NCBI GenBank assembly: GCA_965203995.1
Contig: OZ241962.1
Location: forward strand, 1,092,782 to 1,156,781
DNA from: Dehalococcoidia bacterium
GTDB lineage: Bacteria > Chloroflexota > Dehalococcoidia > Bin125
DNA length: 64,000 nt
Direction: 5' to 3'
Below, in pieces: positions 39,862-62,649 of this stretch (within the stretch, counting starts at the first letter, position 1; each line of letters opens with the position of its first letter). The translations under genes and the position numbers were made by a program. Below the pieces are notes generated by a model. It was not told where the DNA came from. It worked only from the letters and a program-made list of their open reading frames with translations, and ran no database searches.

Positions 39862-39873
39862 ACTGCAGCGAAA

Positions 39874-41175: not shown

Positions 41176-42162
41176 TCGCCCTCCCGAGTGAGTCGCATCC
41201 GGCGCACCACAGCGTCGCGGCCGCCCAGTTCATACTTGTATGGCTCGTCACCGCGCAGGAAGTTCACGCTCGACATCCCCCGCTCAACCGCATCTCGAAT
41301 GCACAGCACTTTCGATCCCAGCCCGGCCGACAGCTCCCGGAACTTAGGATCGTAGCCACTGTTGTACAGCAGCAGCTGATTTCGAGCCACGAAGCACAAC
41401 ACCATCGCCGCCGCCTCGCCCGAAATCGACATCACATATAGCCGCAGCAAACCGGCCTCGGACAGCGATCCTGTCAGGCGCTTGAAAAATGCGCGCATCT
41501 CGTCGGTCAGGAAGACCGCCTTGTCGCCTCGCGAGTCGGCCATCATCGCTATGAACTCCGGCATCCGCCCGGCGACCTCGTCGGGCGTCTCCGCCGCTTC
41601 GAACGCGACAGCGCCGCGCAACTGCCGCAACGGTCGCAGCTTGCGCCGCACCTCACGACGATCACGCGATCGCAGATTCGCCACGTAATCGTCCCATCCG
41701 TGCCCGATCTCGACGGTGGGACAGACCGCCTCGTCCGAGACATCCAGCCGCCAGCCACGTCCGATCGCGACCGCAAAGGCGTCCACCCAGGCCGATCCGG
41801 GCTCGAGACCTCGGAACTCCGCTGTCAGCGCGCCCGCATCCTCCAGACGATCCAAGACCGCCTCCGCCAGCGCGGGTTCTTGTCCCCGCATCGCCGTCGG
41901 ACCCAGGTAATCTGAGACTTCATGATCGCCGGCAAATGACCAGTGCGTACCGCAGCGCTTGAGCGGCGCCAGTCCGACCAGTTCTCCGGAACCGTTCTCG
42001 AGGCCCAGCAACTCGACCTCGGCCGTGCTCGACTCACCAAACACCGACCACCAGGCTTGTCCAAACTCCGGCGTCGAGAACGGCATCGCCTCGGCCGAGC
42101 GGCTCAATGCGCTCCAGCGCTCGCTCAGTTCGGCGAACCCCCCGCGTACGACCGTCAGACTC
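41172..42162 (-). CDS. CelD/BioF2-like GNAT-fold acyltransferase (Acetyltransf_6/FemAB-like superfamily)
   Basis: FSTPEFGQAWWSVFG...LYNSGYDPKFRELSAGLGSKVLCIRDAVERGMSSVNFLRGDEPYKYELGG matches the CelD-like GNAT architecture. The track ORF (to 42503) overlaps folE. GTG at 42160-42162 overlaps the folE stop (GTGA). Confidence 0.65.
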
Positions 42163-44863: not shown

Positions 44864-46121
44864 TCAGGCTGCTCGAGTGGGCCAGCTTGTCGAGCACCCG
44901 GTCGATCGCCCCATCGGTACAGGCATGAGTCGTCACGATCAGATCCGCCGACCGGCTGCGCTCGGGGTGCGGAGTCTGCAACACCGAAGCGATGCTCACG
45001 CTCTCGGCGGCGAACACCGCTCCCAGCTCCGCCAGCACCCCGGCCCGGTCGGGAACCTCCAGCCGCAGATATGCGGGTACGCAGATGTCTTCGAGCGAAG
45101 CCAGCAGCGGCGACGACTCCAGTCGTCGCTGTTGGCGCGGCTGCTGGCTTGACGCCATGCGGCCGGCGACGTCCAGGATGTCCGCCACCACCGCGCTCGA
45201 TGTCGCGCCCGACCCCGCGCCCGCTCCTTCCAGCATCACCGAACCAATCAGATCGCCCGACACCGACACCGCGTTCAGTACGCCCTCCACGCCGGCCATC
45301 GGATCCTCGAGCGGCACCAGCGTCGGATGCACGCGTAGGTCAAGCCCGGTCGGCGTACGCCGAGCTGTCGCCAGCATTCGGATCGCATAGCCCAGATCGC
45401 GCGCGTGGACGAAGTCCCGCGCCGCCAGCGAACGAATACCCTCGCGGTACACGTCGTCCGGCGCGACCTCCGCGTGAAACGCCAACGATGCCAGGATCGC
45501 CAGCTTGTACGCCGCATCGATCCCGTCCACGTCGTTGGTCGGATCGGCCTCGGCGTAGCCGAGTCGCTGGGCATCACCCAGGGCGTCGGCATAACTCAGC
45601 CCGTCGCGAGACATCGCCGTGATCATGTAGTTCGTGGTGCCGTTGATGATCGCCCGAACTGACGACACCTCATTCGCCTGCAGTTCCCGCTGCAACACTC
45701 CGATGATCGGGATCCCGCCGCCCACACTCGCCTCGTAGCGCAGTTCCACCCCCCGCGACTCGGCCAGCGACAACAGCGCCGACCCTCGCTTGGCCATCAC
45801 TTCCTTGTTGGCGGTCACTACCGACTTGCCAGCCGACAGCGCCGCCTCGATACACTCTGAGGCTGGCGTCTCCCCGCCCATGAGTTCCACGATGATGTCG
45901 AGATCGTCGCGCGTCGCCACCTCCGCAGGGTCGGTAGACAGCGACAGCCCATTCGCCGCTAACGCCGACCGCGACGACACGTCTCGCACCGCCGCCGCGC
46001 GGACTTCCAACCCGCGGCCGCAGCGTTGTTCGTAAGCCTGCGCATTCGCTTGCAACGCCTCTAGGACGCCGCCTCCGACGACCCCCAGTCCCAGCAAGCC
46101 AATGCCCAGCGACTCACCCAT
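44814..46121 (-). CDS. hom: Homoserine dehydrogenase
   Basis: [23 protein letters not shown]-binding region. C-terminal ACT domain. 435 aa. Confidence 0.9.
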   Translation of the reverse strand: MGESLGIGLLGLGVVGGGVLEALQANAQAYEQRCGRGLEVRAAAVRDVSSRSALAANGLSLSTDPAEVATRDDLDIIVELMGGETPASECIEAALSAGKSVVTANKEVMAKRGSALLSLAESRGVELRYEASVGGGIPIIGVLQRELQANEVSSVRAIINGTTNYMITAMSRDGLSYADALGDAQRLGYAEADPTNDVDGIDAAYKLAILASLAFHAEVAPDDVYREGIRSLAARDFVHARDLGYAIRMLATARRTPTGLDLRVHPTLVPLEDPMAGVEGVLNAVSVSGDLIGSVMLEGAGAGSGATSSAVVADILDVAGRMASSQQPRQQRRLESSPLLASLEDICVPAYLRLEVPDRAGVLAELGAVFAAESVSIASVLQTPHPERSRSADLIVTTHACTDGAIDRVLDKLAHSSSLIELGVRLRIEDGRDDQ

Positions 46122-46897
46122 CAGGCGCCGGATTCCTCGTCCGCCGGCGGGTCCGCCGTTTCCTGCGGCGCGTCCATCGCTTCAGCAGCTTCCGTTGTTT
46201 CGGTTGGCTCCTCGGTCGAAGCCACGCTGGGCGCCGGCTCCGCCGCTTCCTGCGGTGCGTCCGTCGCTTCAGCAGCTTCCGTTGTTTCGGTTGGCTCCTC
46301 GGTCGAAGCCACGCTGGGCGCCGGTTCCGCCGCTTCCTGCGGCGCGTCCGTCGTTTCAGCGGCTTGCGTTGTTTCGGTTGGCTCTGCAGCTGGGACGACC
46401 GTGGCCGACTCCAATATCTCCGCCACCGCAGCCGCAGGCGCCTCGGACGCGGCAGACTCAGCCTCGGCGCCGTCAGGCGCCGCCTCGGACGGCGGCGCGT
46501 CGTCCAACTCCGCTCGCATCGCTCGCTGCGCCATCCGCGTCACCATCCGGAACCGCGAGGTTTGGCGCATGTGCTCGGCCGTGTAGGGCAACAGCGCCAC
46601 TTGCCGGGCCCGCTTGATCTCGCGCGCAATCTTGCGCTGATCCTTGGCCGTCAATCCCGTCTTGCGTCGCGGCTCGATCCGGCCCCGATCTGAGATCAAC
46701 TTGCGCAGCCTGTCCACGTCCTTGTAGTCGATGGTCGCCACCTCTTGCGGGGTGAACACCGGCGCACGCCGCCGCCGACCACGACGCCGCGTACGCTCGA
46801 TCATCTGCGGCAGCCGCTCGCCCGCTTCGGGCGCAGGCCGGATCACCGGCGCCGGGGACGGCGCCGCCTCAATGTTCGGTTCCGGTTCAGTCGTCAT
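46121..46897 (-). CDS. rpsR: 30S ribosomal protein S18 with long tandem-repeat C-terminal tail
   Basis: Core [59 protein letters not shown]. Followed by 3x [29 protein letters not shown]. An alternative start at MIERTRRRG (46804) is possible. Confidence 0.9.
46150..46395. repeat. 3x 87-bp near-perfect tandem repeat inside rpsR coding sequence
   Basis: Unit ccgccgcttcctgcggtgcgtccgtcgcttcagcagcttccgttgtttcggttggctcctcggtcgaagccacgctgggcgccgg[c/t]tc, repeated from ~46152. Confidence 0.9.
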
Positions 46898-46950
46898 TCG
46901 TACATCTCCTGAGAACAGTCTCCAGCGCTCATCTCAGAGCGCAGCATCGC

Positions 46951-47388
46951 CTACTCAAACGGCAAATCCCCGGCATCGGGTCCGCCGCCAGGGTCTCCAG
47001 GTCCTTCATCCCAGTTACCGCCGCCACTGTCGCCGAAATCTCCGCCCCCACCACCTCGGCCGCCCAAGAATTGAATGTCGTTGGCGACGACCTCGGTGGT
47101 GTAGCGATTGTTTCCTTCGCGGTCCTGCCACTGCCTCGTCTGCAGGCGACCTTCCACGAACACGGGGCGGCCCTTGCTCAGGTACTGTCCACAGAGCTCA
47201 GCAAGTCGCTGCCAAGCGACAATCGTGACCCACTCGGTTACCTCCTGGCGCTGCCCCTCCCGATCGGTGTAGGAGCGACTGCACGCGATCCGGAAGTTGG
47301 CGACCGCCGCTCCGTTGGCGGTAAAGCGCAACTCCGGGTCGGCGCCCAGGTTGCCGATCAACATCACCTTGTTCAGTCCAGCCATCAA
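46951..47388 (-). CDS. ssb: Single-stranded DNA-binding protein
   Basis: [22 protein letters not shown]. Gly-rich linker. Acidic tip ...DLPFE. Confidence 0.95.
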
Positions 47389-47416
47389 TGCACCCCCGCG
47401 CTCATGCGTCCGCAGG

Positions 47417-47719
47417 CTAACGGTCGCGACGGACGATCAGGTGACGCAGCACCTGCTCGTCGATCAACAGCGACTGTTCCAGCTCATCACGGCGCGAATC
47501 CGGCCCGCCGTCGTAATGCGCCAGCAGGTAATGACCCTCGTACGACTGCTTGATCGGATACGCCAGCCGGCGCCGGCCCCAATCGATCACCTCAGTCACG
47601 TCGTTGCCGTACTCGGTCAGCGTGCCGCGCAGATGCGCCATCCGCTCTTCCACCTGCTCACCCGCGACATCGGGGTGCAGCACCACCATGATCTCATACT
47701 CAGTGTCGCCCTGCGCCAT
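47417..47719 (-). CDS. rpsF: 30S ribosomal protein S6
   Basis: [18 protein letters not shown] ... [14 protein letters not shown] extends to 47767. Confidence 0.9.
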
Positions 47720-47763
47720 GTCTCGCTCCTCCGGTTGCGTTCGGTTGTCTGGTTCGTCTCGGC

Positions 47764-49026
47764 TCAACTGCCAATCCCGGGAATCGGGAAGCCCGACGCC
47801 AGTTCGCGCACCTCTGCGCCCACGCGCCGGTGCTCGTCCGCGTCGTCAATGTGATCCAGCACGCGGCCAATCAGTCCTGCCACCTGCGACATCTCGTCCT
47901 CGCCCATCCCCCGAGTCGTCAGCGCCGGCGTGCCGATCCTGATGCCCGACGTCACCGTGGGACGCCGCGTGTCGTAGGGAATCGTGTTCTTGTTCACCGT
48001 GATCCCCGACGCGTCCAGCGCCGCCTCCGCCGCCTTGCCGGTCAGCCCCTTGACGCCCACGTCCAGCAACAGCAGGTGATTGTCGGTCCCGCCCGAGACC
48101 ACCCGCCAGCCCTCTGATTGCAACCCAGCCGCGAGCGCGCGAGCGTTCGCCACGATCTGCGCGGCATAAGTCGCGAACTCCGGTGTCGACGCCTCCTTCA
48201 GCGCGACCGCCTTCGCCGCAATCGTGTGCATGTGCGGACCGCCCGAGGTGCCCGGGAAGATCGCGCGATCGATCGGCCGCGCCATCTCGTCGTTGGTCAG
48301 GATCAACGCCGAGCGGGGCCCGCGCAGGGTCTTGTGCGTCGTCGTCGTCACCACCGGCGCATACGGCACTGGCGACGGATGCACGCCGCCCGCGACCAGG
48401 CCCGCAATATGCGCCATGTCGACCATCAGCACCGATTCCACTGACACTGCAATCTCGGCCGCGAGAGCGAAATCGAAGATCCGCGGATAGGCCGTCGCGC
48501 CGACCACGATCACTTTGGGTCGGTGCTCGCGGGCCAACTCGGCCATGGCGTCGTAATCGATCTGTTCCGTCTCCGGATCCACCCCGTAGGACACGAACTC
48601 GAACCAGCGGCCGGAAATGTTGACCGGCAGCCCGTGCGTCAAGTGGCCGCCGTGATTCAGCTCCAGACCCATCGCGGTGTCGCCAGGCGAGAGCAGCGCA
48701 AAGTAGGCCGCAATGTTCGCCTGCGTGCCCGAATGCGCCTGCACATTCGCGTGGTCTGCGTCGAACAGCGCCTTGGCCCGTTCGATCGCCAACTCCTCCA
48801 CCACGTCCACGAACTCACAGCCGCCGTAGTAACGCTTGCCCGGATAGCCCTCGGCGTACTTGTTGGTCAGCACAGACCCCATCGCCGCCAGGACCGGCTC
48901 GGATGGATAATTCTCCGACGCGATTAGCTCCAGGCCGTCCCGCTGCCGCCCGGCCTCCCGCTCGATTGCCGAGGCGATCTCCGCATCGGCCGCATCCAGA
49001 GCAGCCCCTGCCAACGTCAGCGCCAT
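47764..49026 (-). CDS. glyA: Serine hydroxymethyltransferase
   Basis: [40 protein letters not shown] ... [12 protein letters not shown] (PLP Lys). Confidence 0.95.
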
Positions 49027-49141: not shown

Positions 49142-50248
49142 TCAACCAGGCAACCCCCGCCCGGCTTCCCGCCGCGTCCAGGCCGCATCGATCCCCGCCA
49201 GCATGCCACCGCTAACCAACGAGTGCCCACCCATCATCACCGTCGAATCCTCCAACATCGACACCAGTCCCCGCATCCGCTGATCTGTGATTTGCTCCGA
49301 GCAGCCGAGATCGGCCCAGAACCGGTCGCAGCGCGAGATGTCCCAGCCGAGGTGAGACTGGAACGGCCGCGTGTCCCAGATCATTGCGTCGCCCATCCCC
49401 TCCAGCGCCAGAAGAAATCCGTCCCGACCACCCCACTCGAACAGCTCGCCCAAAAGGGACCGCGCCCGGCGCCGACGGGTTCGCATGCCCCGTTCCTCCG
49501 ACAGCACCCTCACGCGACAAGAGGTGTCGCGATCCACGACCGCCCAGTCGGATCCGCTGACCCGGCCCGCAATCATCAATTCTCCGTCACGGCGGGTCAT
49601 CACGTCGAAGACCTTCAACGCTTGCTGTACCGACTCATCTAGCTCTGGCCAGTTGGATAGCGCAGCGGCGGTGGCAGCGCCAAGCTCCATCGATGCGACG
49701 CTCAATGCAGCCTTCAGCACCGTCAGGTCTGCCGGCGTATCCACGTCCAGCAGTGACCGCGCCGATCGGGCGAACGACTGAACCCTCACCTCCGTACGGT
49801 CCCGGACGAGTAAGGCAAAGCGGTTGTCGACCGGCTCACCGGCCAGGCTCTTCAAAAGCCCCCCATCCGGTACACCAATCCAGTCACATGAAAACATGCG
49901 ATTCGCCGTCGCATGTCCCGATTCGATCGTCCCGCGAACCGCCGACCAGTCTTCGGCGGTCATCGCTGGCATCCCCGAACCTGCGTAACAGACTGGTCCG
50001 GCCGTATCACCCGACGCCGTCGCCACGATGTCCCCGATCGACTGGTCCGCACGCGTCGCTTCGACCGCTAGGTCGGCAATCGATTCGCTGGCAAACACCC
50101 GCACGCGGTCGAACCCGGCTTCACGCGCGCGCGCCGCCGTATCTTGCAACACCGCACTCCGCACCTCATTGACCATCCGCACCGGAACACAGTCTTCCGC
50201 AAGTGGGCGATGGCACAGCCAGAACTCCGAGGGTCGCGTCCCCGACAT
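49142..50248 (-). CDS. Hypothetical protein with possible MobA/CofC-like nucleotidyltransferase N-domain plus uncharacterised C-domain
   Basis: DVDTPADLTVLKAAL resembles the [DN]V[DN]TPxxL motif of MobA-like NTP transferases. The ~150-aa C-terminal part has no recognisable motif. Start placed at MSGTRPSEF just after the comF stop. Confidence 0.4.
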   Translation of the reverse strand: MSGTRPSEFWLCHRPLAEDCVPVRMVNEVRSAVLQDTAARAREAGFDRVRVFASESIADLAVEATRADQSIGDIVATASGDTAGPVCYAGSGMPAMTAEDWSAVRGTIESGHATANRMFSCDWIGVPDGGLLKSLAGEPVDNRFALLVRDRTEVRVQSFARSARSLLDVDTPADLTVLKAALSVASMELGAATAAALSNWPELDESVQQALKVFDVMTRRDGELMIAGRVSGSDWAVVDRDTSCRVRVLSEERGMRTRRRRARSLLGELFEWGGRDGFLLALEGMGDAMIWDTRPFQSHLGWDISRCDRFWADLGCSEQITDQRMRGLVSMLEDSTVMMGGHSLVSGGMLAGIDAAWTRREAGRGLPG

Positions 50249-50249
50249 G

Positions 50250-50990
50250 TCAGTGCGCCCGCGCCGCTGTCCAGGCATCAACCACTCGCGCTCCGGCCGC
50301 CAGCAGCGTGCGCGCCGCCTCCGACAGAGTCGACATCGTCGTCGCCACGTCATCCACCAGCAGCACGCCGCGCCCGGCGACGCGGTCTTCCCTGGCCGCG
50401 AACGCGCCCCGTACGATCCGTGACCGATCCGCCCGTGACGCCGCCTGCGCTTGCCGCGGACCCCACCAACCCCTCCGCCTCAGGGCGGCAGCGTCCAGGT
50501 CCAGGCCCGTCCGAGATGCGACGGCCCGAGCCAGGTACTCCGCCTGGTTCCCGCCGCGCCGCCGCCGGCGCAGCAGCGGGATCGGAATCGGCACGACCAT
50601 GTCGATGTCGTCGGCGGCCCGAATCTCCCCCGACAGTTCCACCAGCTCTTCCGCCAGTCCCACGACGCCGCGATGCTTCAACGCCAGCACCGCCGCCCGC
50701 GCCGGACCGTCGTAGACAATCCCGGAGCGCAGCTCACGCACGGCCAGCGCCTTCGAATGGCACTCGCGGCAGACCGGCGAGTCCGACGCCAGCCAGCAGT
50801 GACGGCAGCGCCGACCATCTGCTTGCCGCATCAATATCCGACAAGCCAGGCAGATCAGCGAGCCCGGCGCCCCGCAGGAGACACAGTGAGACGGCAACGC
50901 AAGGTCAATCAACGCCCCTGCAGCGGCCTTGGCCAACTCGCTCGACCGATACACTGCCTTCATGAGCCTCACCGTACAACTCTTCGCCAA
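50250..50990 (-). CDS. ComF-family protein (ComFC-like phosphoribosyltransferase domain protein)
   Basis: N-terminal Cys4 (CVSCGAPG...CRHCW...CREC) and PRTase motif VLLVDDVATTMSTL. 246 aa. Confidence 0.8.
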   Translation of the reverse strand: MAKSCTVRLMKAVYRSSELAKAAAGALIDLALPSHCVSCGAPGSLICLACRILMRQADGRRCRHCWLASDSPVCRECHSKALAVRELRSGIVYDGPARAAVLALKHRGVVGLAEELVELSGEIRAADDIDMVVPIPIPLLRRRRRGGNQAEYLARAVASRTGLDLDAAALRRRGWWGPRQAQAASRADRSRIVRGAFAAREDRVAGRGVLLVDDVATTMSTLSEAARTLLAAGARVVDAWTAARAH

Positions 50991-51666
50991 CCTCGCCGAG
51001 TCCTGCGGGACGCGACAGGTCGAACTCAGCGACCTGCCTCAGCCGCTCACCGCACGGCAGGTCATGGACGCCTTCATCGGTCGCTTTCCGCATGTCGGTC
51101 CGATGCGAGACTCGATCATGTTCGCCGTCAATGCCGAGTACGTCTCGCCTGACCATCCTGTCTGCCTGGCCGACGAAGTCGCCCTGATCCCGCCGGTCAG
51201 TGGCGGGGCAACAGACGACCCATTCTTCAAAATCACTCGAGCCGAGCTCGATCCCAGCGAGTTACACGGCCTCGTGCTCTCCAATCAGGCCGGAGCGGTC
51301 TCACTCTTCCTCGGCGTCGTGCGTAACAACAACCTGGGCCGTGAGGTCGATTACCTCGAGTACGACGCTTACCCGGCTATGGCCACGAAGGTCATGCGCC
51401 AGATTGCCGGTGAGATTCGCCAGCGTTGGGACGTGCTCGAGATAGCCATGCACCACCGCATTGGACGCCTCGAGATCGGCGAAGCCTCCGTCGCTGTAGC
51501 CGTCGCCTCGGCCCACCGCTCCGAGGGCATCGAGGCCTGCCATTACGGGATCGACCGGCTCAAGGCCATCGTCCCGATCTGGAAGAAAGAAGTCTGGGCG
51601 GACGGCGAAGAGTGGATCGAAGGCTCGCTCACCCCCGCCGCGGAGATCGACGCCGCTTCTGATTGA
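50962..51666 (+). CDS. Molybdopterin synthase MoaD-MoaE fusion protein
   Basis: ThiS/MoaD-like N-domain ending ...EVALIPPVSGG. MoaE-like C-domain HRIGRLEIGEASVAVAVASAHRSEGIEACHYGIDRLKAIVPIWKKE. Confidence 0.8.
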   Translation: MSLTVQLFANLAESCGTRQVELSDLPQPLTARQVMDAFIGRFPHVGPMRDSIMFAVNAEYVSPDHPVCLADEVALIPPVSGGATDDPFFKITRAELDPSELHGLVLSNQAGAVSLFLGVVRNNNLGREVDYLEYDAYPAMATKVMRQIAGEIRQRWDVLEIAMHHRIGRLEIGEASVAVAVASAHRSEGIEACHYGIDRLKAIVPIWKKEVWADGEEWIEGSLTPAAEIDAASD

Positions 51667-53026
51667 TCACCATCGCCGGCTGATCGGTCCGATAGTCCTT
51701 CGCCTTGACGTACTGCACAGTGCCCCGCTGACTATCCAGCAAGCGCGACGCCAGCCTTGGGTCCAAACTCTCAGGCGCCACGTTTGTCGTGATCAACGTT
51801 GGCGCTCGACGCAGGTATCGCGAAGCGCAGAGCTGGTACAGCTTCTCGCTCGCCCACTCCGTTGACTGGTGAGCCCCCAAGTCGTCCAGCACGAGCAGAT
51901 CGACATCCTTGAGCCAGGCGAAGATCGCCTCGAACGACGCCTCCCCTTCGTCGCGATACGAAGCGCGCAGCGCATCCAGCAGCTCCGGTACCACGGCGAA
52001 GCAGACGCGGTCGCCGGCGGCAAGCCGGTCGTTCGCCGCAGCCGCCGCCAGGTGCGTTTTACCCACGCCGGTGCCGCCGATCAAGGTCATCCAGCCCGCC
52101 GGCTGCTCTGCCCAGGCCACCACTAGCGACTTCGCACCAGGCAGATTCTCCGCGTCGCCACGGCCGCCTAGCCCCTGCTCGCGGAAGTTGTCGAACGTGT
52201 ACTGGGCAAGCACCAACTCCGACATCCCGCCGTACTCCCGATAACGCGCTCCCGGCGACGACTCAGCCAGCTCCAGTCGCGCGACGTCGAGCGTCAGGAA
52301 TGATTGCAAGCCGATCGCCGACAGGTCGGCCGTCTCCGCCACCAACACTGTCCGGCGACCGGTGTTGCGCCGGTGGTTGAGCAACTGGAACAGCTTCTCG
52401 CGAGCCCAGTCGGTGGGCGAGATGCAATCCAGGTCGTCCAGGATCAGGAACGGCGCGTCGCGCACGTGCTCGAACAGCAAAGCGAACGAGAAGTCGCCCC
52501 CGCTTGATGCGTTCATCGCCGCACGCAGCCGATCCAGCAGATCGGCGGTGACGAAGTACAGCGCCGCCCGTCCTTCCGCGATCCGTCGATTCGCCATCTC
52601 CGCCGACAACCGCGTTCGTCCCGATCCCGCGGCCCCAGTCAACACCAGCCAGCCCGGTTCCTCGTCGGGCGCGTCGGCGAAGGCGCAGGCCGCCGCCGCA
52701 GACTCGCTTGACGTATCTGCAGCGTCCAAGCGCGCGTCCGAAAGCGGACCGAGATTGCTCAGACGCTGCAGGCGTGCCGCCTCCCTCGCTTCCTGTTCCA
52801 GACGCCGGCACTCGCAGGGCTGCACGCGACCGAACTCTGGATCGCCGACCGGCCGTGATACGCGCACATAGCCCGCTCCGCCACAGATGTCGCAGTCAGC
52901 AGAGCCGTCACGCGTCCAGAGGGAGTCGTCGCGCTCCAGCTCCTCTTCAGTCTCGGAAGAGGTGCCGGTAGCGCGACGACTCCAGTCCGCCAGCAGCGGT
53001 CCCAGCCGTTGCATCTCCGCCATCGC
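51629..53026 (-). CDS. Tandem AAA+ DnaC/DnaI(IstB)-like helicase loader with N-terminal Cys-rich module
   Basis: N-terminus CDICGGAGYV...QPCEC. Domain 1: LVLTGAAGSGRTRL (Walker A K->R) and FLILDDLD. Domain 2: YTFDNF...LIGGTGVGKTHLAAAAA and LLVLDDLG. Track ORF to 53239. Start chosen at 53026 (M72) or 53014 (M75), overlapping the dnaD-like gene by ~70-80 nt. Confidence 0.7.
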   Translation of the reverse strand, partial: AMAEMQRLGPLLADWSRRATGTSSETEEELERDDSLWTRDGSADCDICGGAGYVRVSRPVGDPEFGRVQPCECRRLEQEAREAARLQRLSNLGPLSDARLDAADTSSESAAAACAFADAPDEEPGWLVLTGAAGSGRTRLSAEMANRRIAEGRAALYFVTADLLDRLRAAMNASSGGDFSFALLFEHVRDAPFLILDDLDCISPTDWAREKLFQLLNHRRNTGRRTVLVAETADLSAIGLQSFLTLDVARLELAESSPGARYREYGGMSELVLAQYTFDNFREQGLGGRGDAENLPGAKSLVVAWAEQPAGWMTLIGGTGVGKTHLAAAAANDRLAAGDRVCFAVVPELLDALRASYRDEGEASFEAIFAWLKDVDLLVLDDLGAHQSTEWASEKLYQLCASRYLRRAPTLITTNVAPESLDPRLASRLLDSQRGTVQYVKAKDYRTDQPAMVINQKRRRSPRRG

Positions 53027-53636
53027 GTCCCTCCGTCTCCCAGCGCTCGAGGATGGCCCGCGCATAACGCCAGCTGTGCGCATTGTTGGCCGCGGCTTCG
53101 ACGAAGGCGTCATGCAGCCAATCGGTGCCGTAACGCGCCTCTGCCGCCTTGAGCTCCTCCGCCAGAATCGGCGGCATTGGTGTCCCAAACGCACTCTGCC
53201 AGATCTCGGGCGCCGTGCCGTAAACCGCCTCCCGCCCATGTACCCGAGCAGAGTCGGGAGGCATTGGAGCCGACGCCATCGCCCTGCGGCCGTCCGCGTC
53301 GTTCAACGCCAGCCACTCAACCCATCGGCCTGCCGACTGCGCTCGACCAATCAACAACGACCCACGCCGGATCGCGGCTGATAGTCCCTGCTCGAACGCC
53401 TCGTTGACCTCCCGATCCACGCACATGCCGGCAAGCGCCTCAATCAGCGGCCGCTCTTCTCGCAAACCGGCCGTCGACACCCGCCTCGGAAACCGGCGTT
53501 GTCGACCAATCGCCTCAACAGCGAACAGCGTCACAATCAGCTCCGCAGGGTCACTCATCGCAGGCGCCAGGTCCCGTAACAGCGCCTGCGGCAGCGGCGT
53601 CACCGGAGCGCCCGAGGGAAATCCGTCGAAATCCAT
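52947..53636 (-). CDS. DnaD-domain replication initiation/helicase-loading accessory protein (DnaD/DnaB2-like)
   Basis: C-terminal DnaD-type motif LAEELKAAEARYGTDWLHDAFVEAAANNAHSWRYARAILERW. ATG overlaps the dnaB stop (ATGA). Confidence 0.6.
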   Translation of the reverse strand: MDFDGFPSGAPVTPLPQALLRDLAPAMSDPAELIVTLFAVEAIGRQRRFPRRVSTAGLREERPLIEALAGMCVDREVNEAFEQGLSAAIRRGSLLIGRAQSAGRWVEWLALNDADGRRAMASAPMPPDSARVHGREAVYGTAPEIWQSAFGTPMPPILAEELKAAEARYGTDWLHDAFVEAAANNAHSWRYARAILERWETEGRDGGDATAGTAAGGLESSRYRHLFRD

Positions 53637-55123
53637 CAGAACTCGCCCACTCCCGGTTCAGGCTGCGCATAGAAGTCCTCAAACTTGGCGATCGTCGAGA
53701 CGAAACGCACATCCACACGACCCACTGCGCCATGCCGATGCTTGGCCACGAGCAACTGCGCGACTTCATGGTCGCCCATTCGCGAGGCGTCGCTGACCAG
53801 GTCGTCCTGGTAATCGTCGCGGTCGTACATGTCCTCTCGGTAGATGAAAATCACTACGTCGGCGTCCTGCTCAATCGAGCCGCTTTCACGCAGGTCCGAC
53901 AGTTGCGGCACCGGCGGATGCCGACGCTCCACCGCCCTCGACAGCTGCGAGAGGGCCAGGATCGGCACCTGTAGCTCGCGGGCAATCTCTTTCAACGTGC
54001 GGGAGATCAGAGAGATCTCGCTGACCCGGTTCGTGTCCGACTGCGCTCGTGCCCAACCGTGTACGAGCTGAATGTGATCAACGATGATCAGCCCCAGACC
54101 TGCCCGCTCGTCGCCCTGTCTGTGCGCCCGCTCCTGGAGACGCGTGTGCAGATTCCGCGACTTCGCCCGGATCTCCGCCAGCGACTGACCCGCCGTGTCG
54201 TCGATGTAGATCTCCGCCCGGCTCAGCAGCCCGATCGCCTGCGAAATCCTGGCGCCCTGGTCTTCCGTATGCCGACCCAACCGAAGCCGCGAGTGCTCGA
54301 CGCCCGATTCCGCCGAGACCAGACGCGCCGCCACCTGCTCGGCCGACATCTCCAGGGAGAAAATCGCCACCGGCAGCGTCTGACCGATCGCCGCGTTGCG
54401 CGCCACCGTGAGCGCCAGCGCCGACTTGCCGACCGAGGGTCGCGCCGCCAGCACGACCAGGTCCGAGGCGTGCATCCCTTCGTTGAGCAGCGTGTCCAGA
54501 TCGGTGAAGCCCGTCCGCGTCGGTCCGTCGACGCCGAGTCCCGACTCGCCCTCTTCGCCCAACACGTCGCTGAGCAGATCCTCCAGGACACGGAAGTCCT
54601 GCCGCCGATCCGCGCCGCGAATGCCGTACAGAATCTCGACTGCCCGAGTCAGCGATTCACCCACATTCGGGTCCGCCTGGTAGGCCAGTTCGCCAATCTC
54701 GCCCGCCGCGCGGATCATGTCCCGATACGTCGCCGACCGCTGCACCAGCCGCGCGTAGTGTTCGGCACCGACCGTGGCCGGCAGTTCATAGACAAGCTGG
54801 TTCAGATACGCCTGGCCGCCCGCCTCCTGCAGGCGGCCCTGGTTCGATAGATCGGCCGCCACCGTGATCTGGTCGATCGCCTCATAACGCTCAAACACCG
54901 CCACGACCGCCGCGAAGATCGCTCGGTGACGCGGATCCATGAAGTCGTTCGGTTCCAGCATCCCCGCCAGGCGCTCGTACACGCCCGGTTCGGCCAGGAT
55001 CGCGCCCAACACCGACTCCTCCGCCGCCTGGTCGTGCGGCACTCCACGAGGCGCCGACCGCCCCCGCCCATTCGGCCCACCCGCTTGCGCCTGCTCGTCA
55101 TATGTCGGATCAGAGGAGACCAT
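53636..55123 (-). CDS. dnaB: Replicative DNA helicase DnaB
   Basis: ESVLGAILAEP N-domain. Walker A ARPSVGKSALALTVA. RecA-like H2-H4 motifs. ORF extends to 55168. Confidence 0.93.
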   Translation of the reverse strand: MVSSDPTYDEQAQAGGPNGRGRSAPRGVPHDQAAEESVLGAILAEPGVYERLAGMLEPNDFMDPRHRAIFAAVVAVFERYEAIDQITVAADLSNQGRLQEAGGQAYLNQLVYELPATVGAEHYARLVQRSATYRDMIRAAGEIGELAYQADPNVGESLTRAVEILYGIRGADRRQDFRVLEDLLSDVLGEEGESGLGVDGPTRTGFTDLDTLLNEGMHASDLVVLAARPSVGKSALALTVARNAAIGQTLPVAIFSLEMSAEQVAARLVSAESGVEHSRLRLGRHTEDQGARISQAIGLLSRAEIYIDDTAGQSLAEIRAKSRNLHTRLQERAHRQGDERAGLGLIIVDHIQLVHGWARAQSDTNRVSEISLISRTLKEIARELQVPILALSQLSRAVERRHPPVPQLSDLRESGSIEQDADVVIFIYREDMYDRDDYQDDLVSDASRMGDHEVAQLLVAKHRHGAVGRVDVRFVSTIAKFEDFYAQPEPGVGEF

Positions 55124-55228
55124 CAACGGCCTCCCCACGATCAACATCCCGTGAGAACCCGGACACACAACTGGCGGACGGCCAGCGAATCGGAATCTGT
55201 CTCAGGACTGCAGGACAGAAACGCGCGC

Positions 55229-55819
55229 CTACTCTTCGGCGTCCTCGACGTCCACTGCTGCTTCGCCAGCATCCTCCTCCTCGGCAGCCTCTAACTCCGC
55301 CGCCTCGGCTTCCTCCACCTCCGCCACCACTTCGTCGAAGCTCAGCTCCGCGCTTTCTGCGTCCGGCTCGACGATCACTCGTACCTCGGCAGACACATTG
55401 CGAGTCAACCGGACTCGCACATCCTCGGCGCCCAGCGATCGCAGCGATTGCGCCAGCAACACCTGACGGTGTTCGATCACCGCCTCCGGCACGCTCGACG
55501 CTGCGATCTCCGTCAGGCGTTCGGCGATGTCGCGGGCCGTGATCGAGCCGAACAACCGGCCCTGCTCCCCGACTCGCGCCTGGAAGGTCAACTCCTGCCC
55601 CGCAATCGCCAGCGCGACCGGACTCGCGTCGCCGTCCAGCTTCTCCTGTCGGATCGCGTCGGCCTTCGCCAGCCGCTCCGCCCGGGACAGGTTGTTCTTC
55701 GTTGTGGGACCAGCCAGGCCCCGCGGCAGTAGGTAGTTGCGCGCGAACCCGTTCTTGACTTCCTTGACCTCGCCCACCAACGCAGTCCCTTCGACCTCTT
55801 CGAAAAACACGACCTTCAT
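55229..55819 (-). CDS. rplI: 50S ribosomal protein L9 (with ~40-aa acidic tail)
   Basis: MKVVFFEEVEGTALVGEVKEVKNGFARNYLLPRGLA. Confidence 0.93.
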   Translation of the reverse strand: MKVVFFEEVEGTALVGEVKEVKNGFARNYLLPRGLAGPTTKNNLSRAERLAKADAIRQEKLDGDASPVALAIAGQELTFQARVGEQGRLFGSITARDIAERLTEIAASSVPEAVIEHRQVLLAQSLRSLGAEDVRVRLTRNVSAEVRVIVEPDAESAELSFDEVVAEVEEAEAAELEAAEEEDAGEAAVDVEDAEE

Positions 55820-55914: not shown

Positions 55915-55943
55915 ACGATAGAACCTCTGTACATCCCTTACAA
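55915..55943 (-). promoter_or_regulatory. Candidate sigma70-type promoter for rplI-dnaB operon (TTGTAA-17-TATCGTG), -35 overlapping the dnaE stop codon
   Basis: Lower-GC 118-bp intergenic region. Hexamers spaced 17 bp. GGAG RBS 7 nt before the rplI ATG. Confidence 0.3.
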
Positions 55944-58900
55944 CCCTGCCGCCGAGTCGCCTGCCGGCACGGTCGCTGCCGGCGACGCGGAAATCGTCGC
56001 GCTGCCGCGTTCGCCCAGCGTGCGGCTGACCATCTGCACAACCTGCTCGTTTGCATCCAACCGCCACTCGTCCGAGCAAACCATGACGTCCACTCGATCA
56101 CCCTGTCGAATCCGCAGAAACACCGGATCCGACCCGGCGTGCATCAACTTCATCGACGTCAACCCTCCCTCGAGCTGCTCCATCAGTTCGAAGTCCGCCG
56201 CTTCGTTGCCTGATGCATCGATCGTGATCCATAGCGCCGGTGCGGGCTCCGCGGCCGCCGGACCCGCGACCGGAATCGGCGCCGGCTCGGTCGCCGATGC
56301 CTTCGGCGCAGATATCTCTGCGACCGTCGACTCTGCCACTGCCGTCTCCGGCAAGGAACGCCTGGGCTTCAACATCCACGGCGGCGGTGGCGCGTTCCGG
56401 ATCGGCGGAACGACGATCGGTGCACGCCCACCCAGTGGATCGGGCGTTTCCGAGGCGGCCGCCGGGACTGACGCCACCTGCTCGTTCCAGGCCTCAACCG
56501 ACTCCACAGCCAGGGTCAGGCGATCCATCCGTACCCGGATGTTCACGCGCGTGACCACGATCTGGTTGGGCTGCCACAACTCCCGCGTTAACGCCCATTG
56601 GTCCGGCCAGACCGTCACTTCGGCCGTGCCCGAGAGGTCCTCCAGTATCACCGCGGCAAACGGATCGCCCTTGCGCGTGGTCAACTGACGAACGCTGTTG
56701 ACCAGCCCTGCCACGGTCTGTGTGCGTCCCGCCATCTCCTCGGTCAACTCCGACAACTGCGCATCGACCCGTCCCTGCAGCGCTCGGGTGGCCGCCTGCA
56801 GCGGATGCTCCGACACGTACGCGCCTAACAGCTCCCGCTCCCAGTTGAGCTGCTCGTGCGGCGTCGCGTCCATGCCCTCCTCGAGTTCCACTGCCGGCGT
56901 CGGCGTCGCCACCTCGGCCCCGAACAGATCGAACATCGAGGTCTGACCGCTGTCCCGCAACTCCTGCGCCCGCCGCGCCCGCTTGATGATGTCCTCTGCC
57001 GCCGCGACCATTGCGCCGCGAGGCTCGATCGCATCAAACGCCCCGGTCTTGGCCATCGCCTCAAGCGCGCGCCGGTTCATCGATTTCGTATCCAGACGTT
57101 CAGCCAGGTCGGTCGCGCTCTGGATCGGACCGTGCTCTTTGCGTTCCGCAATCAGCGGCTCGACCGCGGCCCGCCCCACGCCCTTGATCGTGCCCAACCC
57201 GAAACGGATCGCGCTGCGGCCGTCAGCCATCTGCTCGAGCGTGAACGTCGCCTCCGACCGGTTCACGTCCGGCAACAACAGCGGAATTCCCATCCGCCCG
57301 CACTCGGCCGCCGCCTCCCGCACCCGATCGCCGTTACCCGATGCCGCGCGCATCACTGCCGCCATGTAGGGTGCCGGATAGTTCGCCTTGAACCAGGCCG
57401 TCTGATACGCAATCGCCGCATACGACACCGCGTGCGCCTTGTTGAATGCGTAGCCGGCGAACGGCTCGATCAACTCGAAGATCGTCGCCGCGTCCCGCTC
57501 CGTGTATCCCTGCTCTACCGCGCCGCTCAGGAAGTTGCCCCGCTCGGCCTGCATGACCGCGGCAATCTTCTTGCCCATCGCCTTGCGCATGATGTCCGCC
57601 TGCCCCAGCGTGTAGCCGGCAAACTTCCTGGCAATGTGCAGCACCTGGTCCTGGTAGACGATGACCCCGTAGGTGTCGTCCAGAATCTCGCCCAGGTCGT
57701 CATGCGGATAGGTCACGTCCACACGACCGTGCTTGCTCTGGATGAAGCGGGGTATGTGCTCCATCGGCCCAGGTCGGTAGAGCGCCAGCAGTGCCGCCAG
57801 GTCGGGGATCGATGTCGGCTTCAGGTCCTCCACCACGCGCCGCATCCCGCCCGACTCGAGCTGGAACACCCCAAACGTGTCGCCCGTCGCGAGTCGCTCG
57901 TACGTCTTGTGGTCGCCGTCCGGCAGATTCAGATAGTCGATCTCGACGCCTTCGTGTTGCTGTACCAGCGCCACCGCTTCTTCAAGGATCGTGAGGTTGG
58001 TCAGGCCGAGGAAATCCATCTTCAGCAGCCCTACCGCTGCCACCTCGTCCATGCCCCACTGCGTCATCGGAATCCAATCACCGTCCGCCGACTCGTTCAC
58101 CGGCCGCCGCAACGGCACGTTCTCCGCCAGCGGCTCCTGCGAGATCACCACTCCCGCCGCGTGCGTCGACGTGTTCCGCACCACTCCGAATAGACGCTGC
58201 GCGTAGGACAGCAGCTCCGCCACGTTCGGATCGTCGCGCTGCGCCTGCTGAAGGTCCTGCGACTGCGAGATCGCATCGGACACCGAGATGTTGAGCTGGT
58301 TGGGCACCATCCGTGCCACGCGGTCGGTATCGCCCAGTGGAACCCCCAGCGCTCGGCCCGAGTCGCGGATCGCCGCCTTGGCCCCCAGCGTGCCGAACGT
58401 GATGATCTGCGCCACGCGGTCTCGCCCGTACTTCTCCGCCACGTAACGGATCACCTCGTCGCGGCGATTGTCGGCGAAGTCCATGTCGATATCGGGCATC
58501 TCCCGGCGTTCGAGATTGAGAAACCGCTCGAAGACCAGTTTGAACGCCATGGGATCGATGTCGGTGATGTCCAGGCAATACAACACCAGACTCGCCGCCG
58601 CCGAGCCACGCACCGCCCGGGCGATGCCGCGCCGCTTGGCGAACAGCGCGAAGTCCATCACGATCAGGAAGTACTCGGCAAACCCGGTCTCCTGGATCAC
58701 GTGCAGCTCATACGCCAGCCGATCCCGATGGCTGTCCGGTGGATGTCCGTAGCGCTGCTCGAGTCCGCGATAGGCGATATCGGTCAAATGCTCGAGCGCC
58801 GTCTTGCCCTCAGGAATGTCGGGCTGCGGCAGCATCATCCGGTCGAAGTCCAGCTTCACGCTGCAGCGCTCCGCCACCATCTGCGTATTCGTCACCGCCT

Positions 58901-59678
58901 CCGGCAAGTCCCGAAACGTTCTCAGCATTTCCTCTTCCGAGGTGAGATAGAAGTCCTCGCCGTCGAAGCGGAACCGCTTCTCATCGGTGCGCACCGCGTT
59001 GGTGCCGATGCAAAGCAGCAGATCGTGCGCGTCGTGATCGCCCGGCTCGCAATAGTGCGCGTCCTGGGTCGCCACGATCGGCACGCGCAGTTCGTTCGCC
59101 ATCGCCACGGTGCGCTCCAGGAGCGGCTCGAACTGCGGTAGTCCCTGGTGCCGCTGAATCTCGAAGTAGTAGCGGTCTTCAAACACGTTCCGGTACCAGT
59201 CGACCACCCGTTGCGCTTCGGCGAAGTCCTCCTGCCTCAACGCTCTCTGCAGCTCGGACGACGGGCACCCGGACAGCACGATCAGGCCTTCCGAGTACTC
59301 GGCAAGCAGTTCTCGATCCAGGCGCGGCCGGTAGTAGAAGCCTTCCAGATGCCCGCGCGTCGAAAGCTGGACCAAGTTGCGCCAGCCGCGTTCGTTTTCC
59401 GCCAGCAACACCAGGTGGTACGAGTTCGATGCCGCCTCGCGGCCGTCCGACCGGTCGTACCGGCTGCCCGGAGCGACGTACGCCTCCATCCCCAACACCG
59501 GCCTGATCCCCTCCGACTCACAGGCTTTGTAGAACTCGACCGCCCCGTACAGATTGCCGTGGTCGGTGATTGCCAGCGACTCCTGCCCCAGCGAATGCGC
59601 CCGCGCCGCCAGCGCCGAGATCTTCGACAACCCATCCAACTCCGAGTACTCGGTGTGCGTATGCAGATGAGCGAACAT
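55938..59678 (-). CDS. dnaE: DNA polymerase III alpha subunit (DnaE1) with ~150-aa C-terminal extension
   Basis: PHP domain MFAHLHTHTEYSELDG...AITDHGNLYGAVEF. 1246 aa. AAGGA SD before the ATG. Confidence 0.95.
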   Translation of the reverse strand: MFAHLHTHTEYSELDGLSKISALAARAHSLGQESLAITDHGNLYGAVEFYKACESEGIRPVLGMEAYVAPGSRYDRSDGREAASNSYHLVLLAENERGWRNLVQLSTRGHLEGFYYRPRLDRELLAEYSEGLIVLSGCPSSELQRALRQEDFAEAQRVVDWYRNVFEDRYYFEIQRHQGLPQFEPLLERTVAMANELRVPIVATQDAHYCEPGDHDAHDLLLCIGTNAVRTDEKRFRFDGEDFYLTSEEEMLRTFRDLPEAVTNTQMVAERCSVKLDFDRMMLPQPDIPEGKTALEHLTDIAYRGLEQRYGHPPDSHRDRLAYELHVIQETGFAEYFLIVMDFALFAKRRGIARAVRGSAAASLVLYCLDITDIDPMAFKLVFERFLNLERREMPDIDMDFADNRRDEVIRYVAEKYGRDRVAQIITFGTLGAKAAIRDSGRALGVPLGDTDRVARMVPNQLNISVSDAISQSQDLQQAQRDDPNVAELLSYAQRLFGVVRNTSTHAAGVVISQEPLAENVPLRRPVNESADGDWIPMTQWGMDEVAAVGLLKMDFLGLTNLTILEEAVALVQQHEGVEIDYLNLPDGDHKTYERLATGDTFGVFQLESGGMRRVVEDLKPTSIPDLAALLALYRPGPMEHIPRFIQSKHGRVDVTYPHDDLGEILDDTYGVIVYQDQVLHIARKFAGYTLGQADIMRKAMGKKIAAVMQAERGNFLSGAVEQGYTERDAATIFELIEPFAGYAFNKAHAVSYAAIAYQTAWFKANYPAPYMAAVMRAASGNGDRVREAAAECGRMGIPLLLPDVNRSEATFTLEQMADGRSAIRFGLGTIKGVGRAAVEPLIAERKEHGPIQSATDLAERLDTKSMNRRALEAMAKTGAFDAIEPRGAMVAAAEDIIKRARRAQELRDSGQTSMFDLFGAEVATPTPAVELEEGMDATPHEQLNWERELLGAYVSEHPLQAATRALQGRVDAQLSELTEEMAGRTQTVAGLVNSVRQLTTRKGDPFAAVILEDLSGTAEVTVWPDQWALTRELWQPNQIVVTRVNIRVRMDRLTLAVESVEAWNEQVASVPAAASETPDPLGGRAPIVVPPIRNAPPPPWMLKPRRSLPETAVAESTVAEISAPKASATEPAPIPVAGPAAAEPAPALWITIDASGNEAADFELMEQLEGGLTSMKLMHAGSDPVFLRIRQGDRVDVMVCSDEWRLDANEQVVQMVSRTLGERGSATISASPAATVPAGDSAAGL

Positions 59679-61995: not shown

Positions 61996-62649
61996 CTATG
62001 ACCGAGATCCCCGTGCATCCAACCACTTGTTCACAACCTGCAGAGCCTCCGTCAACACCGCCGCCGCCGCTTGGCGAGCGTCAATCACTCGGACCCGCCC
62101 CGGTTGCTCTGCTGCCAGCCGGCGGAAGCCGGCATTGACCCGCTCATGGAACGCCAGGTCCGCATCGCCGATTCGGTCGCCCTGCGAGGATCGGGCCCGT
62201 GTGCGGGCCAGGCCCTCCTCCGCCGAAATGTCCAGCATCAGCGTCAGATCCGGCGACAGCCCCTGTGTCGCCTCACGGTTCAGAGAAGACAACCGCTCCA
62301 GATCCAGGCCGCGTCCGTAGCCCTGATAGGCCAGTGTCGAGTCCGAATAGCGGTCGCTCAACACAATCTCGCCCGCCTCCAGCGCGGGAATCAACACCTC
62401 ATGCACGTGCGACGCCCTCGCCGCCAGGAATAGCCAGGTCTCGTCCCAGTCGCTCATCGTCAACTCGGGATCCAGCACCAGACTCCGCAACCGGGTCCCC
62501 AGGGCGGTGCCGCCTGGTTCGAACGTCAGCCGCGCCGTATGGCCGGACTGCCCCAGACACTCCGCCAGCGACCGGGCCAGCGTGGTCTTCCCCGCGCCGT
62601 CTCCACCTTCGACGGTGATGAACACGCCCGACCGAGCGTCAGCCGGCAT
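61996..62649 (-). CDS. tmk: Thymidylate kinase
   Basis: [15 protein letters not shown]-loop and [12 protein letters not shown]. 217 aa. Confidence 0.9.

Follow-up and report, generated by a model that had tools for sequence, protein, structure and literature searches.

The closest described counterpart of the system analysed here is the domesticated dna[CI] gene of Chloroflexi. Brezellec 2016 counted one domestication of dnaC/dnaI in this phylum and proposed a phage origin for it (PMC5109545). Most of the Chloroflexi genomes sampled in that study have one PF01695 protein and no DciA, and Herpetosiphon has three PF01695 proteins (PMC5109545, Supplementary Data 1). The legend of Supplementary Fig. 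1 refers to the genomic context and to companion genes including a DnaB_2 motif (PMC5109545). The main text and figure legends of that paper mention neither two AAA+ modules nor a degenerate first module (PMC5109545), and the tandem architecture may be drawn in Supplementary Fig. 1 itself. In the searchable literature we found nothing relevant on tandem or double AAA+ loaders of the DnaC/DnaI type, or on helicase loaders in Chloroflexota. Here we analysed a window of 64,000 nt (the whole stretch of DNA under study, and all of this genome that was inspected) on contig OZ241962.1 of a Dehalococcoidia bacterium (GCA_965203995.1); all coordinates are positions in this window. Next to the replicative helicase gene dnaB, it carries a gene for a DnaD-like protein and a gene for a DnaC/DnaI-type loader with two AAA+ modules in one chain. 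An earlier note made from the DNA letters (the original prediction) had regarded a Firmicute-style system outside Firmicutes as notable. That part was not new, as domesticated dnaC/dnaI had been reported for Chloroflexi (PMC5109545), and the window loader very probably belongs to the same gene family. A Firmicute-style loader in Chloroflexota is thus already known; the tandem AAA+ architecture, and a lineage in which the first module appears dead, go further. Our favoured reading, which we consider likely, is that the DnaD-like protein, the loader and DnaB form a resident chromosomal helicase-loading module that descends from a phage cassette and in which the second AAA+ module is the ATP switch.

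The loader gene (51629-53023, (-)) encodes a tandem-AAA+ protein of 464 aa with matches to IstB_IS21, PRK08116 and phrog_50. Its ATG at 53023 follows a GGAGG with a 6-nt spacer. The longest open reading frame (ORF) starts at 53239 and adds 72 Arg-rich residues that are unconserved and not found in homologues. We took the product as 464 aa because the homologues, including an identical public protein (P0001) encoded on a 3.1-Mb contig, start at MAEMQRLG, which corresponds to the ATG at 53023. The whole protein matched Pfam IstB_IS21 (PF01695) with 89.6 bits in two stretches, and each half passed the cutoff of 24.1 separately (residues 86-258, 33.5 bits; residues 259-464, 60.8 bits), so the two tandem IstB/DnaC-like cores that had been proposed are indeed present in one chain. 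The halves also aligned to each other with 39% identity over 114 aa (E 4e-12). AAA+ module 1 comprises residues 98-258 (52250-52732, (-)) and AAA+ module 2 comprises residues 267-447 (51683-52225, (-)); taken alone they account for the 33.5 and 60.8 bits, respectively, and they are joined by about 10-12 residues (263-273). The loader matched phrog_50 'DnaC-like helicase loader' with 231 bits, again in two stretches. Its best NCBIfam model was PRK08116 (NF005992), with 166.3 bits in two stretches and under the cutoff of 189. The DnaC equivalog NF005931 (79.4 bits, cutoff 357), the DnaI model NF006505 (74.6 bits, cutoff 228) and the IstB model NF038214 (109 bits, cutoff 200) did not reach their cutoffs either. 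When the loader was compared with solved structures by phmmer, it matched Escherichia coli DnaC 6qel (E 5e-13) and DnaI 2w58 (E 7e-11), in both cases via module 2.

An AlphaFold model of the loader was built with 30 homologues (mean predicted local distance difference test score, pLDDT, 78; predicted template modelling score, pTM, 0.51). In both modules the predicted order of elements is a strand, the P-loop helix, a strand, two helices, the Walker B strand, a helix, a strand, a helix, and a strand. The initiator-type two-helix insertion before Walker B is predicted in module 1 (helices 159-171 and 180-189, strand 192-196) and in module 2 (helices 345-357 and 361-373, strand 376-380). Module 1 thus has the same predicted element order as module 2 and matches IstB_IS21 by itself, and the possibility that it does not fold as AAA+ finds no support. 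Foldseek returned single-domain matches to Aquifex aeolicus DnaC 3ecc (template modelling score, TM, 0.79 on target), DnaI 2w58, IstB 5bq5, and DnaA domain III 1l8q, in a table that does not state which of the two modules was aligned. Ahead of the modules is a cysteine cluster, CxxC-(22)-CxC (CDIC...CEC; C44, C47, C70, and C72; 52808-52894, (-)), which is predicted to form short strands followed by a helix. The cluster is probably a zinc ribbon. When residues 1-99 were compared with the DnaI_N profile, which had been suggested as a check, no match was obtained at any E value up to 1. At the other end of the protein, a basic tail (QKRRRSPRRG, 51632-51661, (-)) is predicted to be disordered (pLDDT <50 for residues 454-463), and an Arg-rich C-terminal tail recurs in most loader homologues.

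A scan of one genome per species found a relative of the loader in at least 572 genomes, and the best 80 of them (L001 etc.) were analysed. Almost all of these were labelled Chloroflexota (Dehalococcoidia, Anaerolineae, Chloroflexia, Ardenticatenales, and Tepidiformaceae), and a few metagenome-assembled genomes (MAGs) were labelled otherwise. With the window loader, this gave a family of 81 proteins, from which all loader motif counts below were made. All 81 cellular proteins contain two AAA+ domains in a single ORF, as detected with one module hidden Markov model (HMM). The DnaD-like gene was found directly upstream of the loader in 79/80 loci by tblastn, dnaB was upstream in all loci with enough flank, and rplI was upstream in most of the 80. 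The sole locus that lacks the DnaD-like gene is L036 (JAJPGT010000047.1), where the end of dnaB is separated from the tandem loader by about 170 nt; the label of this MAG is Proteobacteria, perhaps because of a mistake in binning or labelling. In protein searches, the best 120 matches were of tandem length only and were annotated as 'ATP-binding protein' or 'DNA replication protein DnaC'. Among these searches, the one with a Chloroflexia-type member returned only tandem-length proteins (380-498 aa), from MAGs and Aggregatilinea, and no cultured Chloroflexus or Dehalococcoides names were among the matches to this query. The tandem loader is therefore the rule in every Chloroflexota class sampled and is not peculiar to the window genome. 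The duplicated loader had been called notable in this genome: the duplication is real, and all 80 of the related species have it. The unusual length of the protein is the one thing that would speak for an assembly or annotation artefact, in which two single-module genes were fused by a frameshift. More than 100 full-length homologues at 45-85% identity were among the matches listed, and one ORF is conserved in 80 species. The chance of an artefact is practically negligible, as it is ruled out by the identical 464-aa public protein and by the 81/81 single two-module ORFs.

Module 2 has the full catalytic set. Its Walker A motif (GGTGVGKT, 52055-52078, (-)) contains K322, which is present in 81/81 proteins. 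Its Walker B motif (LLVLDDLG, 51875-51898, (-)) contains D380 and D381, present in 81/81 and 80/81. The box VII motif (RLASR, 51743-51757, (-)) contains R423 and R427, both on predicted helix 422-428, and these arginines are found in 67/81 and 81/81 proteins, respectively. DnaA box VII carries the same RLxSRF pattern. The set is completed by the sensor II arginine R445 near the C-terminus (70/81). We consider R427 the putative arginine finger, since the spacing between R423 and R427 equals that between R216 and R220 of E. coli DnaC, and both lie on one predicted helix. The sequence YTFDNF (52184-52201, (-)) had been described as a DnaA-like box. It is instead the N-terminal strand common to the DnaA/DnaC clade (SFENY in E. 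coli DnaC, TFESF in phage gp38) and is not specific to DnaA.

Module 1 of the window loader lacks much of this catalytic set. Its Walker A motif is GAAGSGRT (52613-52636, (-)), with R136 at the position of the lysine; its box VII position reads GLQSF instead of RLxSR (52298-52312, (-)), with G238 and F242 in the place of both arginines; and it has no sensor II arginine. Its Walker B motif (FLILDDLD, 52427-52450, (-)) is kept. The intact Walker B of module 1, the canonical motifs of module 2 and the cysteine cluster, all of which had been read from the sequence before, were confirmed by translation, and C44, C47, C70, and C72 are all present in 81/81 proteins. In E. coli DnaC, the same Lys to Arg change, K112R, abolishes ATPase activity (PMC8213410). 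The original prediction that the first module is a pseudo-ATPase is well in line with this change and with the loss of both box VII arginines, and module 1 of the window lineage is probably a pseudo-ATPase. Most family members, by comparison, carry the catalytic set in module 1. The Walker A lysine of module 1 is present in 77/81 proteins, the box VII arginines are present in 71/81 and 67/81 at the two columns, and the Walker B aspartates D196 and D197 are present in 81/81 and 80/81. GxxGxGRT was found in module 1 of the window loader, L001, and L002, and L003 has no recognisable P-loop. Both box VII arginines of module 1 are gone in the window loader and in L001-L006, and L004-L006 still have GKT. 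The dead module 1 is thus confined to the lineage of the window, with only 4/81 proteins lacking the Walker A lysine, and the degenerate Walker A that had been noticed is real in the window loader and lineage-specific. This distribution suggests a stepwise decay of module 1, in which box VII was lost first (L004-L006) and the Walker A lysine later (L003, L001, L002, and the window loader). Two exceptions in Walker B were seen: L062 has DQ in module 2 with an intact module 1, and L052 has DG in module 1. Given L062, module decay may not always be in module 1.

The decay does not seem to be free. Among the three closest genomes, the identity of module 1 is 73% vs 78% for module 2. The residues K143, F146, S177, and Y179, which form the tetrad that binds single-stranded DNA (ssDNA) in E. 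coli DnaC, correspond to R167, M170, T204, and W206 in module 1 and to R353, Y356, T388, and W390 in module 2. The arginine equivalent is present in 81/81 proteins in module 1 and 79/81 in module 2, and the tryptophan equivalent is present in 81/81 in both. Module 1 of the window loader keeps three of the four tetrad equivalents (R167, T204, and W206). Module 1 thus appears to be still under constraint, because its Walker B aspartates are kept, its identity is close to that of module 2, and its tetrad equivalents are conserved. The tetrad equivalents also hint that both modules line a DNA path.

The DnaD-like gene (52947-53636, (-)) encodes 229 aa and was assigned from TIGR01446, phrog_186, and synteny. 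It lies between the loader gene and dnaB (53636-55168, (-), longest ORF), whose product matched TIGR00665 with 431.5 bits (cutoff 385), DnaB_C with 288 bits and the DnaB N-domain with 95 bits; the real start of dnaB is probably a few codons downstream of the start of the longest ORF. The conserved string rplI-dnaB-DnaD-like-loader starts with the ORF of rplI (55229-55819, (-)), which encodes ribosomal protein L9. The stop codon of dnaB and the start codon of the DnaD-like gene have one base in common (TGATG), and so the ATGA coupling described earlier does not hold. At its 3' end, the DnaD-like gene extends 77 nt into the start of the loader gene (52947-53023, (-)), in agreement with the earlier estimate of about 70-80 nt, and both frames are conserved at the protein level. 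The GC content of the window is 0.63-0.69 and is about 0.66 around the module genes, even across the region, which is slightly different from the 68% given before.

The DnaD-like protein passed NCBIfam TIGR01446 DnaD_dom (27.9 bits vs cutoff 24.95) and was slightly under the cutoff of Pfam PF07261 DnaB_2 (19.6 vs 22 bits), a family for which precomputed matches are listed for many of its homologues. It also matched phrog_186 'DnaD-like helicase loader' (E 7e-7). Its AlphaFold model has a pLDDT of 80, and >90 over most of the N-domain. In this model, the N-terminal domain (residues 1-122; 53271-53636, (-)) consists of helices and a beta-hairpin and is winged-helix-like, similar to DDBH1. Foldseek aligned the N-domain model to the B. 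subtilis (Bacillus subtilis) DnaD N-domain 2v79 (prob 0.99, TM 0.48 on target, E 0.03), and the model of the protein to the full-length DnaD model 9a5c_B (E 3.4e-5). The predicted likeness of the N-domain to the winged-helix domain of B. subtilis DnaD is thus moderate. The DDBH2 (DnaD C-terminal) domain (53028-53213, (-)) contains WRYxxxILxRW, that is, W189-R-Y191-xxx-I195-L-x-R-W199, which corresponds to the YxxxIxxxW motif. Y191, I195, and W199 are invariant in 22 homologues, and YxxxIxxxW is the DNA-binding motif of DDBH2 domains (PMC2978336). With TIGR01446 passed, the motif present, and DnaD families as the sole matches, the proposal of a DnaD-like protein beside dnaB holds, and no unrelated family competes with it.

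Relatives of both genes were found in phages. When the loader was searched against 50,697 phage genomes (INPHARED, tblastn), 23 matches were obtained, none of which covered >38% of the query, and these were single-module 'DnaC-like helicase loaders' of Bacillus phages with about 35% identity. Among 2.9 million viral contigs in IMG/VR, the best 80 loader relatives were all single-module (80/80) by the same HMM as was used for the cellular set, and in 40/80 of these loci a DnaD-like ORF lies upstream and overlaps the loader ORF. In Bacillus phage PfEFR-4, gp37 ('DnaD-like helicase loader') precedes gp38 (DnaC-like) and overlaps it by 32 nt, and gp38 has the same N-terminus as the Chloroflexota loader (CxxC...CxC, a helix, SNLG, and TFxxF). 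A profile of the DnaD-like family matched gp37 in hhalign (prob 94%, E 1.3e-7), and the top match of the DnaD-like model among viral structures was a phage 'replisome organizer' (252 columns, E 5.5e-6). By tblastn, the DnaD-like protein had no match to phage genomes at E 1e-3, and so its kinship to phage proteins is visible only at the profile and fold level. Because of the phage gene order, the overlap, the N-terminus of gp38 and the profile match to gp37, the DnaD-like and loader pair of Chloroflexota resembles a phage cassette that was captured together with its gene overlap, which agrees with the domestication of phage dnaC/dnaI proposed in Brezellec 2016. In this data set, the tandem form was seen in cells and not in phages.

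The same affinities raise the question of a mobile-element leftover, which might be an IS21-type IstB helper or a decaying prophage cassette without host function. The best Pfam family of the loader is IstB_IS21, and its closest single-module relatives are phage DnaC-like loaders. However, a check of the ORFs and annotations surrounding the module revealed no IstA transposase or integrase, both genes show strong purifying conservation, the GC content is uniform, and the pair occupies the same place by rplI-dnaB in 80 species of several classes. This explanation is hardly tenable, and an IS21 element or prophage remnant was ruled out by the synteny across 80 species and by the lack of a transposase or integrase nearby.

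The extra AAA+ module probably arose by internal duplication. Modules 1 and 2 of one protein have a mean identity of 44.5%, vs 32-34% to gp38 and 25-26% to E. coli DnaC, and both modules group together against the gp38 and E. coli DnaC outgroups in 90/100 bootstraps. Separate module 1 and module 2 clades were not recovered in the neighbour-joining tree (13 and 0 of 100 bootstraps). Within Anaerolineae-type proteins, one half shares 54% identity with the other vs 47-48% with its counterparts in other classes, which suggests either a near-ancestral state or gene conversion. Four proteins of the Anaerolineae/Chloroflexia type (L037, L046, L062, and L071) have a module 1 that ends with the APD(Y/F)R of module 2; their halves are 54-62% identical in L037, L046, and L071, and 44% identical in L062. 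The data fit equally well with one early duplication followed by slow divergence, with gene conversion, and with repeated duplication.

How such a module might work can be outlined from the better-known loaders. By analogy with B. subtilis DnaD, the DnaD-like protein, with its winged-helix N-domain and DDBH2 domain, would connect the helicase-loader complex with DNA and with proteins bound at the origin or fork. The loader would then dock on DnaB via the zinc ribbon and the following helix, as in DnaI, which requires its zinc module to bind the helicase (PMC2673437). Module 2 would be the ATP- and ssDNA-responsive switch, as in E. coli DnaC. In the lineage of the window, module 1 would most likely be a non-hydrolysing structural or DNA-contacting module that may touch neighbouring modules. 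Elsewhere in the phylum, both modules mostly look competent for catalysis.

There are several ways in which tandem modules might be arranged on the helicase. In one of them, three chains would form a single tier in which the modules alternate (1-2-1-2-1-2) as one DnaC-like spiral on the DnaB hexamer, and each ATP site would combine the P-loop of one module type with the arginines of the other. With six modules for each DnaB hexamer, this arrangement would agree with the 6:6 DnaB-DnaC geometry; the inter-module connection is short (about 10-12 residues), tetrad equivalents are present in both modules, and across most of the phylum both modules have full motif sets. However, in the clade of the window, module 1 has neither the P-loop lysine nor the box VII arginines, while the motifs of module 2 are kept. 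In an alternating spiral, the module 2 site would be without a trans-arginine and the module 2 arginine would face the dead site, so that no complete ATPase site would be left. In addition, box VII of module 1 was the first to go in L004-L006, where GKT is still present, and this is easier to understand as the decay of like-with-like module 1 sites. These arguments are drawn from motif patterns only, and we consider the alternating spiral rather improbable. Since module 1 lost the P-loop lysine and the arginines while module 2 kept all of them, the motif losses seem to fit like-with-like interfaces better, either as two tiers or as a spiral of module 2 to which module 1 is appended.

Extending the favoured reading of a resident loading module, we tentatively propose that Chloroflexota might load the replicative helicase with a two-tier, type-II-like AAA+ loader. 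It could consist of six chains that form two stacked DnaC-like spirals (12 modules) along ssDNA, or of three chains that form one six-module spiral. The lineage of the window would then be a natural separation-of-function mutant, with one tier as an ATPase-dead scaffold, maybe on DNA, and the other tier as the ATP switch. We found no description of such a design for any helicase loader in the searchable literature, and we consider this proposal possible but less probable than not.

A further possibility is that the pair is a replication-restart module (PriA-type primosome) or a regulatory module, and that the true origin loader (DciA or another) is encoded elsewhere. In B. subtilis, restart likewise involves DnaD and DnaI (PMC6393240). 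No dciA (DUF721) was found among the 20 non-ribosomal ORFs of the window that were scanned against Pfam. On the other side, the pair forms one string with dnaB in all loci with enough flank, the published survey found zero DciA and one PF01695 protein in most Chloroflexi genomes sampled, with three in Herpetosiphon (PMC5109545), and restart and origin roles are not mutually exclusive. We therefore regard a role confined to restart or regulation as unlikely. Some observations nevertheless weigh against a resident helicase-loading module, and part of them favours the restart module as well. DciA homologues have been reported for some Chloroflexi in a preprint (10.1101/2022.01.24.477630), and our inspection covers 64 kb, so a second loader (dciA or another dnaC) could lie elsewhere in the genome. 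The DnaC, DnaI, and PRK08116 scores of the loader are all under the curated NCBIfam cutoffs. The cysteine cluster gave no match to DnaI_N, and its ligands follow a different pattern from those of DnaI. Automated alignments pair R427 with E. coli R216 (the arginine coupler) and not with R220 (the arginine finger), and the inter-module geometry of the model is uncertain, with a pTM of 0.51. Moreover, for the loader family the binding of helicase, zinc, and DNA as well as the ATPase activity are inferences. The anatomy, conservation, synteny, motif states and phage affinities of the pair were observed directly, and the functional class of helicase loader is suggested by the adjacency of dnaB in related loci and by homology.

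These findings bear on how helicase rings are opened. Ring-opening models rest on the 6:6 DnaB-DnaC spiral, and the solved relatives of the loader were matched over a single stretch each. A two-module loader across a whole phylum raises questions of stoichiometry, of the ATP-site interface and of the grip on ssDNA. The stepwise decay of module 1 provides natural variants with which the roles of the two modules might be told apart. Furthermore, the locus documents the capture of a whole phage cassette, with the overlap preserved and the genes fixed beside dnaB, and this capture extends the published picture of phage loaders replacing DciA.

Several other features of the window were noted. Upstream of rplI lies the ORF of dnaE (55938-59678, (-)). 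At the 3' end of the loader gene, a MoaD(ThiS)-MoaE fusion gene (50929-51666, (+)) is convergent with it and overlaps it by 38 nt; this fusion is also the downstream neighbour of the loader in the closest relatives, L001 and L002. In a scan of 50.8-56.2 kb, no promoter-like sites were found, and terminator-like sites were not clearly above chance. The strings rpsF-ssb-rpsR (46121-47767) and rplI-dnaB in the window resemble those of Firmicutes. The S18 gene (46121-46897, (-)) encodes 258 aa, with the S18 domain at residues 54-103 (Pfam 78 bits) only; the tail behind it, of about 150 aa, has a high content of Ala, Glu, Pro, and Thr, and in it an 87-nt (29-aa) tandem repeat (46148-46384) is present in 2.7 copies with 94% match. 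According to ORF translations only, the complete S10-spc-alpha cluster of ribosomal protein genes lies at 15500-37900, together with tuf and fusA. A 403-aa ORF (49142-50353, (-)) between glyA and a ComF-like phosphoribosyltransferase gene matched no Pfam family at E up to 0.001. A 770-aa ORF (39043-41355, (+)) beside a cytochrome c assembly gene has borderline codon statistics and no Pfam match; it may either be spurious and lie opposite a real gene or encode a divergent membrane protein. Finally, judged from the sequence only, the gene at 62639-63979 (-) encodes a protein with P-loop/SpoIIIAA-like ATPase, phosphotyrosine-phosphatase-like, and R3H parts, and it adjoins a probable thymidylate kinase gene.

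Compared with known systems, the loader is similar to the E. coli DnaC/PF01695 branch in that both of its modules show the PF01695 core, in which two helices are predicted ahead of Walker B. Module 2 further resembles E. coli DnaC in GxxGxGKT, Walker B, the RxxxR of box VII, the C-terminal YR and the tetrad equivalents, and another feature common to the loader and this branch is that the gene adjoins the replicative helicase gene. However, the structures of DnaC, DnaI, IstB, and DnaA were each matched over a single stretch, whereas the Chloroflexota loader has two modules in one chain. E. coli DnaC has a helical N-domain, while the Chloroflexota loader has a four-cysteine N-terminus, and the Walker B motif is DE in the E. 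coli DnaC/PF01695 branch and DD in the Chloroflexota loader. The IS21 helper IstB sits by IstA in the IS21 element, whereas the neighbours of the loader are dnaB, the DnaD-like gene and the MoaD-MoaE fusion gene. Two tandem modules, one of which may be catalytically silent, are also known from the type II double-ring AAA+ proteins p97/Cdc48, NSF, and Pex1/Pex6. The loader gave loose full-length Foldseek alignments to p97/VCP and Cdc48 (410-535 columns, root-mean-square deviation 16-24 A). Those proteins belong to the classic clade with lid domains, and only the tandem topology is common to them and the loader; nothing points to closed double rings of the loader.

Relative to B. subtilis DnaD/DnaB/DnaI, the DnaD-like protein has a DDBH1-like winged helix and a DDBH2 domain with YxxxIxxxW, and the loader has a cysteine-rich N-terminal domain where DnaI has its zinc-dependent helicase-binding domain (PMC2673437). 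The ligands of DnaI are C67, C70, H84, and C101 (PMC2673437), in contrast to CxxC-(22)-CxC in the Chloroflexota loader. Unlike in B. subtilis, the Chloroflexota locus has one DDBH-type protein, with no co-loader similar to B. subtilis DnaB found beside the helicase and loader genes, and its loader is tandem and its genes form one string with that of the helicase. The PRK08116-type loaders of phages and Firmicutes, such as PfEFR-4 gp38, have a similar N-terminus and a DnaD-like 'replisome organiser' upstream that overlaps the start of the loader, but they have one AAA+ module and about 35% identity, and the Chloroflexota genes are fixed beside the chromosomal dnaB. The domesticated dna[CI] of Chloroflexi from Brezellec 2016 comes from the same phylum and has the same Pfam domain as the loader described here (PMC5109545).

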